DNA from: an uncultured delta proteobacterium
Lineage (GTDB): Bacteria > Desulfobacterota > Desulfuromonadia > Desulfuromonadales > BM103
Length of the DNA stretch: 43,591 bases
Reading direction: 5' to 3'
Assembly: GCA_963715335.1 (NCBI GenBank)
Contig: CAVQRZ010000010.1
Coordinates: forward strand, 1 to 43,591
Made by a program: the position numbers. Positions 39,001 to 43,591 of the stretch are shown in pieces; positions within the stretch are counted from its first letter, which is position 1, and each line of letters starts with the position of its first letter.

Positions 39001-42000
39001 ATTTCCATGATTGGGGACACTCAAAAGGGACACTCTATTTTGAGTGTCCCCGGCTCCGGCTCAACTGATACCCGCTTCTTCCTGCAGCAGAGACACCCAG
39101 GCGGCCAGGCGCTGCTCGGTAAGCTGGTCCTGATTTTCGACATCAAGGGGCAGACCGAGGAAATAATCCCCTTCAACCGCGGCGGAGGCAGAGTAATCGT
39201 AGCCTTTATCCGGCCATTTGCCGATGATGGTCGCTCCGGCCGCCACCGCCAGATCATGCAGTGCCTTCATCCCGTCGACAAAGGCATCAGGGTAACCGAT
39301 CTGATCTCCGACCCCGTACAAAGCGACCTTTGCCCCCTCCAACCGTGCCTCGCGCAGGCAGTCATAGGCGTCGTTCCAGTCGTTTTGCAGGCGATCCCCC
39401 TCATCGTGCCAGCTTGAAGTGCCGAGAATCAGCAGGTCACAGCTTTCCAGATCCGCCCGGGTTGCGTTGGCAATGGGATAAAGGCGTGCGGTGGTGATTC
39501 GCTCCGCAAGACGTTGCGCGATTAAGGCGGTATTGCCAGTGCTGCCGCCGTAAAATATTCCGATTTTCATGATGACTCCTTTATCGACGAAGATAAAATC
39601 AATTTAAAACGTTAACCAGTTTGACATGTTAGCATATCAGCGCGGTCAGAGTGGAGTGGGGTCAGGTCTTGAAATTTGAATTGACTCAAGATTAATGACC
39701 TGACCCCGTTCAGGAGTGTCCCCTATGCCCAAATAAGTCAAACGGAGTCTTGACCCCTTTACACAATTGGGGACACTCAAAAGGGACACTCTATTTTGAG
39801 TGTCCCCAAACTTAAAACTTGCGATTCAGCAAACCTTCCAGCGTCAGCAGAGTCTCTGGACCACACAGTGGCCGACCACTTCTGGTTGCTCGCTTGATTA
39901 TATCTACGGTTCTTTCATCATCTTCTTTGAGGAATTTACAGTATTCTTCTCGAGCACTTTCGTGCAACCAGTCCGGCCGGCACATAAAAGAATCGGGCTC
40001 TCCTTTTACATGACACCTGGCACTGGACCAACGGTAACTCTCAGCATCATGCGTCAGACCGGCTTTCACCGGGTTGTTTTCAATATAGCGGGCGACACAC
40101 CAAAGATAGTCGTCTGTATCGACAATGCATGCAAAGAAGCGATTCTGCCACAAGCGGCCAGAACGAAAATATTTACGGTTTACATATCGGGTGTAAACCT
40201 GATTTGCCAGCCCCACCCCGCATGCAAGCGCGTCTTTAGTTTGAGGGACTACAAGGAGATGAACGTGGTTGGGCATCAAACAATACGCCCAGATATCCAG
40301 ACGGAATTTCGTGGCATACTGCTTCAACGAATCAAGATAGGTTAAACGATCCTGGTCATCAAAGAAGACTGTTTGACGATTGTTGCCGCGTTGGGTGACA
40401 TGATGCGGATAGCCAACGGCTACCGCCCGAGAAGTGCGTGGCATGATTCCCTCCATAAAATTTCATAACAAATCAATCAAATCAGATGCTGAGATATTAA
40501 CGAAAATCAAAACACAAAACAATTTTCAATTGGGGACACTCAAAAGGGACACTCTTTTTTGAGTGTCCCCGGCTCCGGCTCAAAGGGGCTCTCTGCTTTA
40601 AGTGTCCCCAATGCTATTTCTTAGTTCTGGGTGGAGAAGATTCCAGGATTCCCCTGCTGCGGAGTGTCAGCCAGACGGGTGCTGCACCGAGATCGTACCG
40701 GACTTCGAAAAGCTTCAGCGGGACGACACCGGCGGCATACTCGTTAATCGCTTTGCGCCAGTTTGCATCGTCTGTGAACGGGGCTCCCGCATCACGGATG
40801 CCCTCGTCACCGGTAAACCCCAGATAAACCAGGATGACAGGGATGCCGAGGCTACCCAACTTCCAGGTAAAAGCCAGTCGGTTCGCAAGTTGGTAATGCG
40901 AGTCGCGGGAGATGTTGACGTGTGGATTGATGGCCTGCCAGGCTTTGCATGCTTCGTCGATCGCAGCGCCAATGCGCTCGTGGTTCTCGATCCCTTTAGG
41001 TGAAGAGGCCTTGTCAAGTCGCTTGCCAGCTGCACCCAACTCAGGCCAGTTCGCTTTCGCTTCAACAAGGACGAGTCCAGCTTTCCCCTCGATTTCACAG
41101 GTCGCAGCGATATCCCAATTCGGCGTATTCGCGCCGCGTCGATGAGCCAGCCACCAGCCCTGCAACTGTTCCCAAACGGCATGCCCTGACATAACTGCTG
41201 GCCCGAAACGCTCAAGACGCGCTTCCGTTGGATCATTGTAACCACGAGGCATATAAACGGTGTCAGGTGGGAAACGGACGGGGAGCGGGGCAAGAAGGGA
41301 TTCAAACTCTCTGAGGAAGTTGGGGCTTTCGGTCCAGTCGAGAACGTGTTTACGACTACCTCTTTCCAAAATTCCCCCTGTTTTCTTAGGCTTCAATTTA
41401 ATTGGTATAAAAACACAGTATCAAGTTTCTGGGCTACTTCATTTTTCAGAGGACACTTAAAAGGGACACTTGTTTTCAAGTGTCCCCGGCTCTTAATGTT
41501 TAATCAACTGTTGCGGTTAAAAGCAATTGTGATGTTGATCGCGTCATCGCAACGTACATCAACTTCATTTCATCTTCATCAGAATGCTTGCTCGTGATGA
41601 TTTTTCCGCTGGGGATGGCGACAAAGGGGAATTCAAGCCCTTTGCTGCTATGAAAAGTAAGGAGCTTTACCCGTTCTTCCTTTTCATCAAAACTTATATT
41701 TGTTTTACCAACAAAAGGGATCTTCGCTTCACACAGGGCCTCAAAAAGAATCTTTCGGTCAGATGCACCGCGATACAGTATAGCCATATCCTTCCAGGAC
41801 ATGCCCAGGTTATGTGCCTCAAGCAGTTTTTCGGCAATATATTTTGCTTCGTCAGGCATCGAAGGTAATTTTATGATAAGTGGTTTAGTCCCGTGTCGAC
41901 CTGCAGAGACCGGTGCCAGGCGTGGGATATTGTCCTCATCGGCTTCTGCAGGAGTCAGGAGATTCGCAACTAACTTTGAGGCGAACTCGAGAATTTCCTG

Positions 42001-43591
42001 TGTGTTACGATAATTCACCCGCAGGATTGTCGTACGACCTTGAGCCAGAATGCCTACACTTTTAAAGCTGAAGCCTCTTTTTTGCTGGCCATAAATTGAT
42101 TGGGCATCATCGTAGAGCAGCAACAACGAATTCGTTGTTGGTGAAACCATCTGAGAAACTAATTTAAGCCACTCCGGACGGAAATCGTGCCCCTCATCTA
42201 TCAGCACAGCATCATATTGGCCTGCAGGGACAAGCTTACGGTCAACGGAGTTAATGACCATATCAACCATTTTTTCAAAGAAATCATCGTTTGAGACGTG
42301 ATTGTCAGGTGGCTTGATATTGTAAGTCTTGAGCTGAGCTCGGCACCAACTATGAAAGGTGTAAACGTGAACTTTTTCTTCGAGATTTTTGATCTGCATC
42401 CAATGCTTCAGGCGCTGAGCTAGGAGCCTGTTGTAACATAAAATCAGGATTGGCCGTGTGCACACTTTTGCCAGATGTTCCGCCCGATATCCCAATATAA
42501 GAGTTTTTCCGGAACCAGCAACGCCGTGGATGATTCTGTGGCCGTCCCCCAAACTTCGAGCAAGTTGCTCCTGCTGAATGTCCATGACCTTTAACAAATC
42601 AGGGATTTCCTGGACATCCTCCTCAAGTTGATCAAAAAGGGATGCTTCTTGTTTCGGCAGTCGAATTTCCGGGAACAGATGCCACCTAATTCGGTCAATC
42701 TGGGGCAAAGTAAGCACACCCCAATTACCCAACGTGAACATTCCCCACAACCTCTCTTGGAATTCTTCAGCATCCACATTTTCGACCATCTCGTCCTGAC
42801 AGATGACTCGATGTTCCGGAATGACTTCGCCTAAGTCCGTCGCTTCAAAAGCCTTGCGTGTCACCCTTGTCAAAATGACACCATAAGTCCAAGGGAAGAG
42901 AAGTTTCCCTTGCCAGCGACCTTTGTCAGCAATTAATTGAGGATCGCGCTCTAAAACATTTACAACGGCATGGGCATACTGCCGTGCTTGTTCGAGAGGA
43001 TTGGGTTTTTTGACGATGCCGGAATTTGTTTGCAGAGCGACTTGAAAGCGGTCGAAGGTTTGGATATTGTCGAGTCGCCAGTCTTTAACTTCGAGGATCA
43101 ACAACCCTCGCTGGGGGTGGAGAATAATGAAATCCGGGTGCAACCTACCAGTACCGACAGGGACGTCATACCAGCAGAGATAATCCTCTTCCAGCTTACT
43201 TTCCAGACGTTGTGCAAAACGTCTTTCCCCTGTCGTATCGAATTTGCAGCAAGAGATACTAGGAATCAATGTTGCCATAATCGGCTGCCCCCTCTCAACG
43301 CTACGATGTTTCTATTCAGCGATTCACTGCTCATGGATTTAAAAAATCGATAAAACCCTTTTAACTCTGTTTATTCATACAAAAGTTAGGCCCAAAAAAG
43401 GCCACCTCCTGCAAGCAAAGGTAGCCAAAAAAAGAAGTTCCAGTTTTGTTTTTCAACTGGCAACCCGGCTGTCCCGTGCGGGACCCGTGGCTTTGCGTCA
43501 TCGGATTACTCCGATTTTGCCTTTGCAGAATGTCAATTTATCAGAAACTTAGAAAAATAAGAAAGTATTTATAGAGGTTTGATTGGGGACA

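Follow-up and report, generated by a model that had tools for sequence, protein, structure and literature searches.

A c-di-GMP-I riboswitch upstream of an acquired NERD-UvrD nuclease-helicase gene, and its possible action as an OFF switch

The riboswitch leader and the gene behind it

Near the end of contig CAVQRZ010000010.1, on the reverse strand, a GEMM-I riboswitch aptamer and a terminator hairpin precede a gene for a 592-aa NERD-UvrD nuclease-helicase. Coordinates are positions in the window, meaning the whole 43,591-nt stretch of DNA that was analysed, and the features are listed in the order in which the gene is read.

43582..43591, no strand assigned: incomplete arm of a REP-type hairpin, at the contig end; its letters recur at the REP hairpins 40530-40583 and 41451-41492
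43368..43553, minus: leader stretch related to sequences elsewhere in the family (sequence similarity)
43535..43543, minus: putative extended -10-like promoter element, TG-n-TAAATT (sequence read; resemblance to paralogous units begins here)
43455..43530, minus: c-di-GMP-I (GEMM-I) aptamer with canonical contacts (RF03168, RF01051, own model R1)
43440..43460, minus: hairpin H1, CCAGTT-N9-AACTGG, 6 bp and a 9-nt loop (sequence, folding)
43427..43433, minus: U7 run after H1, a possible pause site or weak terminator tail (sequence)
43394..43426, minus: terminator T2, 10-pair stem, 7-nt loop, U6 (terminator scan, 43426-43400; folding, -15.3 kcal/mol)
43407..43419, minus: proposed antiterminator segment of T2, able to pair with the aptamer 5' strand (43530-43524 and 43521-43516)
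43279..43367, minus: unique spacer including the ribosome-binding site 43288-43296 (BLAST, promoter scan)
41500..43278, minus: NERD-UvrD nuclease-helicase gene, 592 aa (ORF, Pfam, PADLOC)
41451..41492, no strand assigned: REP hairpin at the boundary of the unit; from here on the sequence is again homologous to contig C9

It is clear that the aptamer is complete, as a preliminary description of this locus had held. RF03168 (c-di-GMP-I-UAU) covers it over model positions 1-81 of 81 with 71.9 bits (cut-off 65.9, E 8.2e-14), the single Rfam match at gathering cut-off across the whole window; RF01051 (c-di-GMP-I) matches at 43456-43531 over model positions 1-87 with 68.9 bits against a cut-off of 35, a full-model score that assigns it to clan CL00126; and our own covariance model R1 gives 90.7 bits. 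It is one of 18 riboswitches in this genome. In the Rfam alignment and in folds the pairing of P2 and P3 follows the model, with P2 capped by GUAA, a GNRA tetraloop; P1 comprises 3 bp. The ligand-contacting letters, read off the RF03168 alignment, are G43521, A43494 or A43493, and C43460, the canonical G, A and C, which we take to be G20, A47 and C92 in Vc2 numbering. The UAU in the name of RF03168 presumably refers to U, A and U at the three contact positions, and the consensus of that model has U at positions 10 and 76, where this aptamer has G and C. Although the UAU model does score best in the clan, as first described, the aptamer with its G/A/C contacts is not a true UAU variant. Because the contacts are canonical and not U/A/U, c-di-GMP should be its ligand, as far as the sequence predicts. 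In cGAMP-sensing GEMM-Ib riboswitches an A replaces the first contact G, according to the available part of PMC9481103; with G43521 in that place the cGAMP reading was set aside, dual-ligand binding still being possible.

Likeness to the riboswitch units on contigs C1 and C32 of this genome begins exactly at the -10-like element, and likeness to a unit of genome G027 (contig C163) ten bases upstream of that point; a sigma-70 scan did not flag the element. If the promoter does lie there, transcripts must cross the aptamer, H1 and T2 before they reach the gene. Aptamer and gene are on the same strand, in the order aptamer, terminator, gene start that is found in other riboswitch units of this genome, and the earlier claim of an aptamer with its own terminator about 176 nt upstream of the helicase gene holds, the gap between aptamer and ATG being 176 nt and T2 being found by the terminator scan. 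Within that gap there is neither a promoter-like site by the sigma-70 scan nor an ORF of at least 50 aa, and the spacer has no BLAST match in the genome or at 96 homologous loci; a weak promoter belonging to the gene itself may lie in the roughly 120 nt past T2.

The protein carries Pfam NERD (residues 16-109, 3.4e-13), UvrD-helicase (2.2e-12) and UvrD_C (5.4e-22) domains, and its translation shows the ExK motif of NERD as well as both Walker motifs, A and B. PADLOC C3a187 'NERD+UvrD' (PDLC01087) matches residues 1-589 over profile positions 1-543 of 559 (E 2.1e-169), and partial PADLOC matches are to GajB (1.4e-20) and Nhi (9.9e-07). The preliminary description had set the lower bound of the module at 40614, which was drawn too wide: the ORF at 40614-41396 (251-260 aa), considered as a partner of NERD-UvrD, is a separate duplicated unit with a 93% paralogue on contig C9 beside a second RAYT-type transposase, and tblastn found relatives of it at none of the 96 NERD-UvrD loci. 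It has no match in Pfam, PADLOC or NCBIfam. For this same ORF the Atlas indicates restriction-endonuclease-like clusters.

Distribution of the gene and origin of the leader

The absence of the gene from almost all close relatives, as originally described, is upheld: two of 44 family genomes encode the protein, namely the present one and, at 63% identity, G036, and it is missing from 42 of the 43 relatives. In species genomes its homologues occupy 45 loci at 43-74% identity. A riboswitch scan that had earlier covered 19 of these 45 was completed, with no c-di-GMP riboswitch at gathering cut-off at any of the 46 loci L038-L083 (350,704 nt). Nor does a same-strand riboswitch precede the NERD-UvrD homologue at any of 96 loci, 87 of them with at least 300 nt upstream; the 96 include the closest homologues, in L093 (75%), L048 (74%), L092 (73%) and G036. 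One riboswitch in L092 (54.8 bits with R1, 65.1 bits with RF03167) is 2.8 kb distant on the opposite strand and so is not linked to the gene. The arrangement described here is a single occurrence, shared by none of the 96 homologous loci.

The leader has relatives of its own. Its promoter and aptamer part resembles other GEMM-I units, and over 123 nt it shares 72% identity with a stretch of genome G033 (contig C18) that is followed by a lipoprotein gene, a likeness that spans the 3' half of the aptamer, T2 and about 25 nt beyond and stops near 43368. A search of 233 order genomes with the expression platform was convincing only in G033 (E 6.5e-10), five others lying between E 1e-3 and 1e-2. 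Since the homologous leader precedes a lipoprotein gene in G033, we infer that a native leader was joined here to an acquired gene; judged by these comparisons the leader is native to the lineage, and the proposed wiring of an acquired gene to a resident riboswitch fits both this leader and the patchy gene.

Alternatively, the junction may be accidental and without a selected regulatory role: a REP-bounded or recombined NERD-UvrD cassette would have replaced the original target, leaving an orphan leader, ended by T2, and a gene that is silent or transcribed from its own weak promoter within the 120-nt spacer. This would account for a homologous leader that serves a lipoprotein gene in G033, for a homology that ends at 43368, for the REP hairpins that bound the unit beside a RAYT-type transposase, for the singleton among 96 loci, and for the frequency of defence-type genes among sampled riboswitch targets, about 1% and no more than chance. 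It sits poorly with an aptamer core, H1, T2 and antiterminator complementarity that are all intact, whereas the aptamer of the G033 copy has decayed to 20.4 bits, and with a spacer devoid of promoter-like sites; read-through from the riboswitch promoter would moreover reach the gene regardless, and genome G026 shows a second fusion, there of a GEMM-I leader with a partner gene from that module. Accidental juxtaposition is, on this evidence, unlikely.

An assembly chimera could be invoked, given that the contig stops 61 nt upstream of the aptamer, probably within a REP repeat, and that the bin has 6.87% contamination and near-identical contig pairs. The stretch 41493-43591 has no other copy in the genome, save matches of 67-89 nt between its aptamer region and other riboswitch copies. 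Contigs of two public runs from different studies bridge the junction, over 43346-43554 with 0 differences and over 43223-43373 with 2, and even though these runs possibly include the source sample, a chimera is very improbable. These contigs are of DNA; no RNA run was listed as containing 41400-43591.

Folding of the leader and the sense of the switch

Shuffled versions of the leader fold less well (z = -2.77; one of 200 as good). In growing transcripts of 120-132 nt the minimum free energy structure is the pairing of the aptamer 5' strand with T2 (-47.0 kcal/mol), and it moves to T2 only once T2 is complete (-47.9 kcal/mol). The duplex of 5' strand and T2 has -14.8 kcal/mol; among 5000 random genome windows 1.1% equalled or beat this value, and among 5000 shuffles 1.8% did. 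The argument is thermodynamic only, and as modelled it favours an OFF switch.

One plausible course of events is the following. Without ligand, H1 would take the 3' strand of the aptamer, and the freed 5' strand, including the ligand-contacting G, would pair with the 3' end of the 5' arm, the loop and the start of the 3' arm of T2, so that T2 would be blocked and RNA polymerase would read into the NERD-UvrD gene. With c-di-GMP bound, the aptamer would retain its 5' strand, T2 would form, and transcription would stop near 43394-43399. On this scheme planktonic or motile cells, low in c-di-GMP, would produce the nuclease-helicase, and at high c-di-GMP it would be off. Our preferred reading, with a probability of about one half, is that a canonical, native c-di-GMP-I riboswitch was fused to an acquired NERD-UvrD gene, the junction lying about 90 nt upstream of that gene, most likely as an OFF switch of the Cd1 type. 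The short P1, the promoter element that the scan did not flag and the strength of T2 count against it.

The same hairpins could be read in the opposite sense, as an ON switch of the pilM type on the same gene, in which extended H1 (43466-43435) together with the U7 run would serve as the terminator under control and exclude the aptamer, so that bound c-di-GMP would keep it from forming and let polymerase through, and the gene would be expressed at high c-di-GMP, in biofilms or at high cell density. The 5' arm of H1 does cover C43460 and the 3' strand of P1 (43459-43457), much as the pilM terminator covers the ligand-pairing C in the accessible text of PMC9262584, and extended H1 has 11 bp and -10.1 kcal/mol, with the U-run beginning one base later. 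The stem is weak, however (2 G-U and 6 A-U among its 11 pairs, a loop of 9 nt), P3 competes with the lower part of it, H1 is not in the list of the terminator scan, and the much stronger T2 begins 1 nt past the U7 run. Because T2 would form exactly when the aptamer is ligand-bound, an ON effect would be cancelled, and an ON switch is accordingly considered improbable.

Defence character and relation to known systems

The label of a defence candidate, given in the preliminary description, stands as an end-to-end match to C3a187, and that label itself rests on a three-member cluster and on gene neighbourhoods. C3a187 was proposed as a candidate accessory cluster of type III CRISPR, its 3 members adjoining type III CRISPR-cas cassettes, as described in the available portion of Shah et al. 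2018 (PMC6546367). None of the eight ORFs at 34114-43591 matches a Cas family, the other side lying past the contig end; among the neighbouring ORFs there is also no match to GajA, and with the GajB matches partial the pairing that marks Gabija is not found. The closest species-level homologue, in L048, has PDC-S07 and a type IV restriction enzyme downstream; the L081 homologue sits within a type I R-M operon; HNH genes are neighbours at L047, L056, L057, L063, L068 and L077; and defence-type neighbours occur at L048, L057, L081, L077, L055 and further loci. A paralogous slot on contig C9 of this genome holds GajB-like and DpdF/PsyrT-like helicases. These neighbourhoods lend moderate support to a defence role, and NERD-UvrD is probably an anti-phage-type gene.

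Alternatively, the riboswitch link could be real and the gene not immune, NERD-UvrD being a nuclease-helicase that serves the repair or recombination of DNA or the maintenance of mobile elements. Its solved relatives act in repair as helicases, NCBIfam gives matches to UvrD, PcrA, Rep and HelD (partial only and far under cut-offs), many homologous loci have housekeeping neighbours, and homologues occur on plasmids and megaplasmids (136 records). The patchy distribution, the R-M and other defence contexts, the module that recurs with HNH_2 at 12 and with HIT at 9 of the 96 loci, and the end-to-end match to a PADLOC candidate speak for defence instead, and a non-immune role, although it has some claim to attention, is the less probable of the two.

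A parallel case is found in the family genome G026, where a GEMM-I aptamer (70.3 bits) leads an island of HNH_2, HIT, mREase_II and SIR2 genes; its HNH_2 is 59% identical to the HNH_2 that adjoins the NERD-UvrD homologue of L057. By sequence this is a second, independent GEMM-I-led defence island. It is the only one of 30 HNH_2 loci with a riboswitch in front: a match at L288 was rejected as weak and on the opposite strand. Rfam found nothing in L286, L287 and L289 at E up to 1. Such fusions are not enriched, since only one of 114 units in 43 relatives has a defence-type first ORF; the sample was drawn from the best 137 of 438 RF01051 matches outside this genome, among the matches listed; two units under 300 nt from a contig start were set aside and four had no ORF, and the first ORF alone was scanned per unit. 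The remaining first ORFs of this sample (PilZ, OmpA, adhesins, cytochromes and similar) fit the known targets of c-di-GMP riboswitches, which are motility, adhesion, pili, cytochromes and signalling proteins.

A different leader, termed R2 (about 250 nt, its promoter conserved, with two terminators and a mini-ORF rich in Gly), precedes defence-type genes at 8 of the 12 fetched loci scoring at least 50 bits. It has no match in the window, and for the leaders of L092 and L093, at only 20.3 bits (E 0.013), R2 homology is not claimed. A wider, speculative and rather doubtful proposal is that in this family toxic defence nucleases stand behind swappable premature-termination leaders, the c-di-GMP aptamer being one interchangeable sensor head, that GEMM-I was fused at least twice independently to one recurrent module (NERD-UvrD here, HNH_2-HIT in G026), and that R2 represents a class of cis-regulatory RNA, new to the literature, that belongs to defence genes. 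If so, the GEMM-I fusions would tie innate immunity to a lifestyle messenger. The conserved, terminator-rich R2 leader suggests that premature termination is a general restraint on diverse defence genes.

As for defence switched by c-di-GMP, the original proposal gains from the aptamer, the shared strand, the patchy gene, the native leader and the G026 parallel, and loses from the 0 of 96 loci that share the arrangement, the single defence-type unit in 114, the three-member cluster behind the defence label, and the strong terminator and 120 nt that separate aptamer from gene. If the preferred reading is right, immune investment would be linked straight to the sessile-versus-planktonic choice, through RNA and without a protein regulator, and the locus is an easily testable pair of an aptamer of known-ligand type and a single-gene candidate system.

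Among known systems, Cd1 of Clostridioides difficile is, in the accessible text of PMC9262584, a transcriptional OFF switch with the order aptamer, hairpin, terminator. The present leader shares its aptamer family, canonical contacts and order, together with a terminator able to coexist with the aptamer and competing with an antiterminator; the proposed antiterminator here uses the aptamer 5' strand, whereas Cd1, in that text, uses the 3' strand, P1 here has only 3 bp, and the target is a cytoplasmic nuclease-helicase, not a flagellar, pilus, adhesin or signalling gene. The Geobacter metallireducens pilM riboswitch, a cGAMP-responsive GEMM-Ib ON switch in the available parts of PMC9262584 and PMC10118264, comes from a related, GEMM-I-rich bacterial group and likewise has a hairpin overlapping the ligand-pairing C; here the first contact is G, not the A described as typical of cGAMP binders in the excerpted PMC9481103, and a second, stronger terminator follows. 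The protein matches the C3a187 profile throughout but, unlike the members of that cluster, has no Cas match among the eight ORFs examined at 34114-43591, and it shares with Gabija GajB and Nhi a superfamily-1 UvrD-like motor, differing in its NERD N-terminal domain and lack of a GajA partner. C. difficile has, in RCd22/abiF, a structured 5' leader that holds down a toxic defence gene and terminates most transcripts (bioRxiv 10.1101/2025.04.15.648962); there too a defence-type gene lies behind a structured, terminator-bearing leader, which has no known small-molecule ligand and acts also as an antitoxin in trans.

In the literature searched, no report was found of a nuclease-helicase, or of a restriction island led by HNH, under the control of a c-di-GMP riboswitch. 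The claim to a first second-messenger riboswitch on an immune-type module is nevertheless softened by C. difficile, where, in the accessible part of PMC7699646, the c-di-GMP riboswitches cdi1_4 and cdi1_5 precede the prophage type I antitoxin RNAs RCd11 and RCd12. Both cases link a c-di-GMP-I riboswitch with a conflict module of mobile elements, theirs with premature termination at high c-di-GMP according to that text; the product there is the antisense antitoxin RNA of a toxin-antitoxin pair, and here the mRNA of a nuclease-helicase. As far as the available text describes them, these prophage antitoxin riboswitches are the nearest precedent for the locus.

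A canonical GEMM-I riboswitch in front of a NERD-UvrD gene

The final 2.1 kb of the window carries, on its minus strand, an ordered series of leader elements followed by a 592-aa NERD-UvrD open reading frame.

Elements of the locus, in the order in which they are read
43582-43591 (contig end): fragment of a REP-type hairpin
43543-43535 (-): extended -10-like element
43530-43455 (-): complete GEMM-I aptamer (Rfam)
43460-43440 (-): hairpin H1, followed by seven U
43426-43400 (-): terminator T2, followed by six U
Between T2 and the ORF (-): 120-nt spacer with a ribosome-binding site
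43278-41500 (-): 592-aa NERD-UvrD ORF

The aptamer (RF03168, 71.9 bits; RF01051, 68.9 bits) is the sole RNA family found by Rfam at the gathering cut-off in the 43.6-kb window. The protein combines a NERD domain, a UvrD-type helicase core and UvrD_C (Pfam) and is matched end to end by the PADLOC candidate C3a187 (E 2.1e-169). The preliminary description of a GEMM-I aptamer with hairpins before a NERD-UvrD gene is thus borne out by Rfam, Pfam and PADLOC, and the riboswitch is real and canonical, in an unusual place. R1, an aptamer model made from 12 of this genome's 18 aptamers, also gives a weak match at 19904-19976 (+) (14.5 bits, E 0.024) that is probably due to chance.

In this lineage GEMM-I is a resident tool, for which NERD-UvrD makes an odd target, since there are 18 matches above cut-off in this genome (43 contigs totalling 3.30 Mb, 6.87% contamination), all 44 family genomes have the element (456 matches overall), and the first genes behind it here encode Ig/cadherin-type surface, OmpA, giant surface and DUF11 proteins, and a PilZ protein with a ParA-like ATPase. 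Several of the 18 matches are in tandem, and some sit on the near-identical contig pairs C1/C32 and C15/C28, so that the unique riboswitch loci number fewer than 18.

Although the best-scoring model is RF03168, named UAU for its letters at the ligand contacts, alignment shows that the window aptamer has G at the first U of the model and C at its last U, the A being common to both. G, A and C are the contact letters of ordinary c-di-GMP binders. The first contact position of the cGAMP-sensing relatives is usually A, according to PMC9481103. Because its contact letters are G/A/C, rather than U/A/U or a first-position A, the window RNA is read as a c-di-GMP sensor. Among the 18 riboswitches, the one at G000:C33:46611-46700 is a candidate cGAMP sensor because its first contact letter is A; the gene behind it encodes a 573-aa DUF11/DUF7933 surface protein.

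NERD-UvrD and its neighbours

Of the 44 family genomes, only G036 (63% identity) shares the NERD-UvrD gene with this one. Its homologues are spread over several phyla: 45 loci are from species genomes (43-74% identity) and 50 from metagenomes (42-76%), a few of these being identical contigs present in both collections. C3a187 was defined, with three members, in a survey of genes adjoining type III CRISPR cassettes (PMC6546367); no Cas genes occur among the eight ORFs examined near the gene in the window. The neighbourhoods of 30 NERD-UvrD loci are mixed, some housekeeping and others defence-type: HNH or HNH_2 nucleases adjoin in six, PLD-ResIII-DUF3427 enzymes in two (one scoring as a type IV restriction enzyme, 2.9e-192), and one homologue lies within a type I R-M operon, while further neighbours include a Schlafen-type helicase, PIN7 with DUF4357, Fic and, 3' of the L048 homologue, a NUDIX gene that is PADLOC PDC-S07. 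By tblastn, 12 of 96 loci have an HNH_2 homologue next to NERD-UvrD and nine of the 96 have a HIT gene there, not all of these loci being independent. Together with HIT and HNH_2, NERD-UvrD makes up a recurrent module. NERD-UvrD itself is probably a defensive nuclease-helicase. At L061:375-645 (-) there is a group I intron (92.3 bits), 2.8 kb upstream of a NERD-UvrD homologue in Candidatus Endobugula sertula.

The pairing itself is strain-specific. An Rfam scan of all 46 species-genome NERD-UvrD loci found a c-di-GMP riboswitch in none, and R1, applied to the 50 metagenome loci plus five others, matched only the window and one aptamer in metagenomic locus L092, on the opposite strand and 2.8 kb off, with which an Rfam scan of 20 of the 50 metagenome loci was consistent. 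Of the 96 homologous loci, among which the pairing was not found beyond this strain, 87 include 300 nt or more of sequence before the gene. The two closest metagenomic homologues have a common upstream unit of their own (L092:2838-3000 and L093:1500-1680), without a match to any Rfam family, in which promoter-like boxes are followed by a ~100-nt leader and by an intrinsic terminator that lies 35-70 nt ahead of the ATG; since they possess such a unit, it seems that relatives of the gene, too, are held by a leader-terminator, though a different one.

A parallel case was found in the family genome G026. The best 137 of the 438 family matches outside this genome were merged, where in tandem, into 120 units, for which 118 downstream stretches were fetched and 114 first ORFs called and scanned. 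PADLOC at E up to 1e-8 matched two of the 114 among these best matches, an OmpA protein resembling ZorB/MotB and the HNH_2 nuclease of G026; the remainder belong to the usual c-di-GMP regulon (Pfam). At the position of the G in the GGC model the G026 aptamer (70.3 bits) has A, which makes its contact letters canonical too. Downstream of it and its terminators are HNH_2, HIT, a type II methyl-directed restriction enzyme (2.3e-161), DUF2726, DUF2779 and SIR2 (3.8e-104), and the HNH_2 is 59% identical to that adjoining the NERD-UvrD homologue in L057. G026 has two copies, 90% identical, of a 1-kb block with MarR, aptamer and terminators, and the second copy leads an uncharacterised 372-aa gene. 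Of 233 order genomes, 41 have HNH_2, and among 30 HNH_2 loci an aptamer precedes it only in G026. The window NERD-UvrD and the G026 HNH_2-HIT, each led by GEMM-I, are thus two independent leader fusions to parts of one module in one family. There is no overall enrichment of defence-type targets behind GEMM-I among the 114 first ORFs, and each fusion is a singleton.

Without an aptamer, the two-terminator part of the G026 leader recurs before HNH_2 both in G008 and on contig C9 of this genome.

Copies of the two-terminator leader (R2)
G000:C9:79070-79212 (L317): R2 copy
G008:C5:14089-14231 (L315): R2 copy
G026:C99 (L284:1755-1898 and 4723-4868): R2 copies

R2 measures ~145 nt, or ~250 nt with its promoter-like 5' part, and contains a pair of terminator hairpins along with a short Gly-rich mini-ORF; common to the aptamer-free copies are the promoter-like element, the two hairpins, which have U-runs, and a mini-ORF of 7-11 codons. 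Compensatory changes are seen in five of 30 predicted pairs, and no Rfam family matches. The R2 model gives 30 matches in 20 of the 44 family genomes, and in three of 25 fetched loci a GEMM-I aptamer takes the place of the R2 5' part. Twelve of the fetched loci reach 50 bits or more, and a defence-type gene follows eight of them (HNH_2 four times, RmrA, PDC-M05A, HIT and HsdM), or five of eight without the four training sequences; such a gene follows none of the 13 weaker loci. The window leader is not of this type, as the R2 model does not match it.

A possible variable slot and the origin of the leader

Window 27357-41443 is present as a shuffled copy at G000:C9:52691-69867 (91-99% identity, including 4735 nt at 98.4%), either paralogous or from a second strain. 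At the C9 counterpart of the riboswitch and NERD-UvrD stand a GajB-like UvrD helicase (690 aa) and a DpdF/PsyrT-like helicase (836 aa), with HNH_2-HIT further along, and the site looks like a variable defence slot. A REP-associated tyrosine transposase lies at 39812-40456 (-) (NCBIfam 76.7 bits, cut-off 80; Pfam Y1_Tnp), with REP-type palindromic hairpins around it at 40530-40583, 41451-41492 and 43582-43591; the pattern has 24 strand-counted matches in the genome, and the contig terminates inside one. An ORF of 251-260 aa at 40614-41396 (-), without a family match, is placed by Atlas near 'putative restriction endonuclease' and DUF6946 clusters and is duplicated on C9 at 93%, along with the transposase. 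A repeat of ~400 nt at 1-450, 22906-23150 and 26286-27180 has dozens of copies on many contigs (80-96% identity).

Apart from aptamer-region matches, 41493-43591 has no second copy in this genome. Against family DNA the 313-nt leader matches only over the aptamer of other riboswitches, except at G033:C18, where 72% identity over 123 nt takes in the aptamer 3' half, the T2 region and ~25 nt beyond. The aptamer there (G033:C18:51727-51835, L157:2797-2872; 20.4 bits with R1) is decayed, with P3, terminator and downstream leader kept, a possible example of riboswitch decay, and the gene behind it encodes a lipoprotein missing from this genome. No other convincing copy of this expression platform was found among 233 order genomes. 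Because of this homologue, because leader homology to it stops near 43368, and because REP hairpin 41451-41492 is the exact point at which homology to C9 starts again, the leader is native to the lineage and the gene joined to it foreign. This is in keeping with the earlier proposal that the strain had wired an acquired defence gene to c-di-GMP; a cassette that merely landed behind the leader would fit equally. That the riboswitch exerts no real control over the gene is, on balance, rather unlikely, and it probably does control the acquired NERD-UvrD.

Predicted operation of the switch

The leader as a whole is more stable than its shuffles (z = -2.77), and T2, at -15.3 kcal/mol, makes a good intrinsic terminator. 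When growing transcripts are folded, those of 120-132 nt pair the aptamer 5' strand (43530-43516) with 43419-43407 inside T2, which becomes the minimum-free-energy structure only once complete, by a margin of ~1 kcal/mol. Duplexes as stable as this one (-14.8 kcal/mol), or more so, arise in 1.1% of 5000 random genome windows and in 1.8% of 5000 shuffles. The 5' arm of H1 overlaps the ligand-pairing C and the 3-bp P1. An ON switch like that of pilM, acting via an extended H1, appears unlikely. The growing-transcript folds, the rarity of the duplex and the order of the hairpins favour, with a probability of about one half, an OFF switch, in which pairing of the 5' strand with T2 would be set against the T2 terminator, following the logic of the C. 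difficile riboswitch Cd1. The Cd1 OFF switch has a hairpin between aptamer and terminator (PMC9262584), and the window leader likewise has a hairpin in that place.
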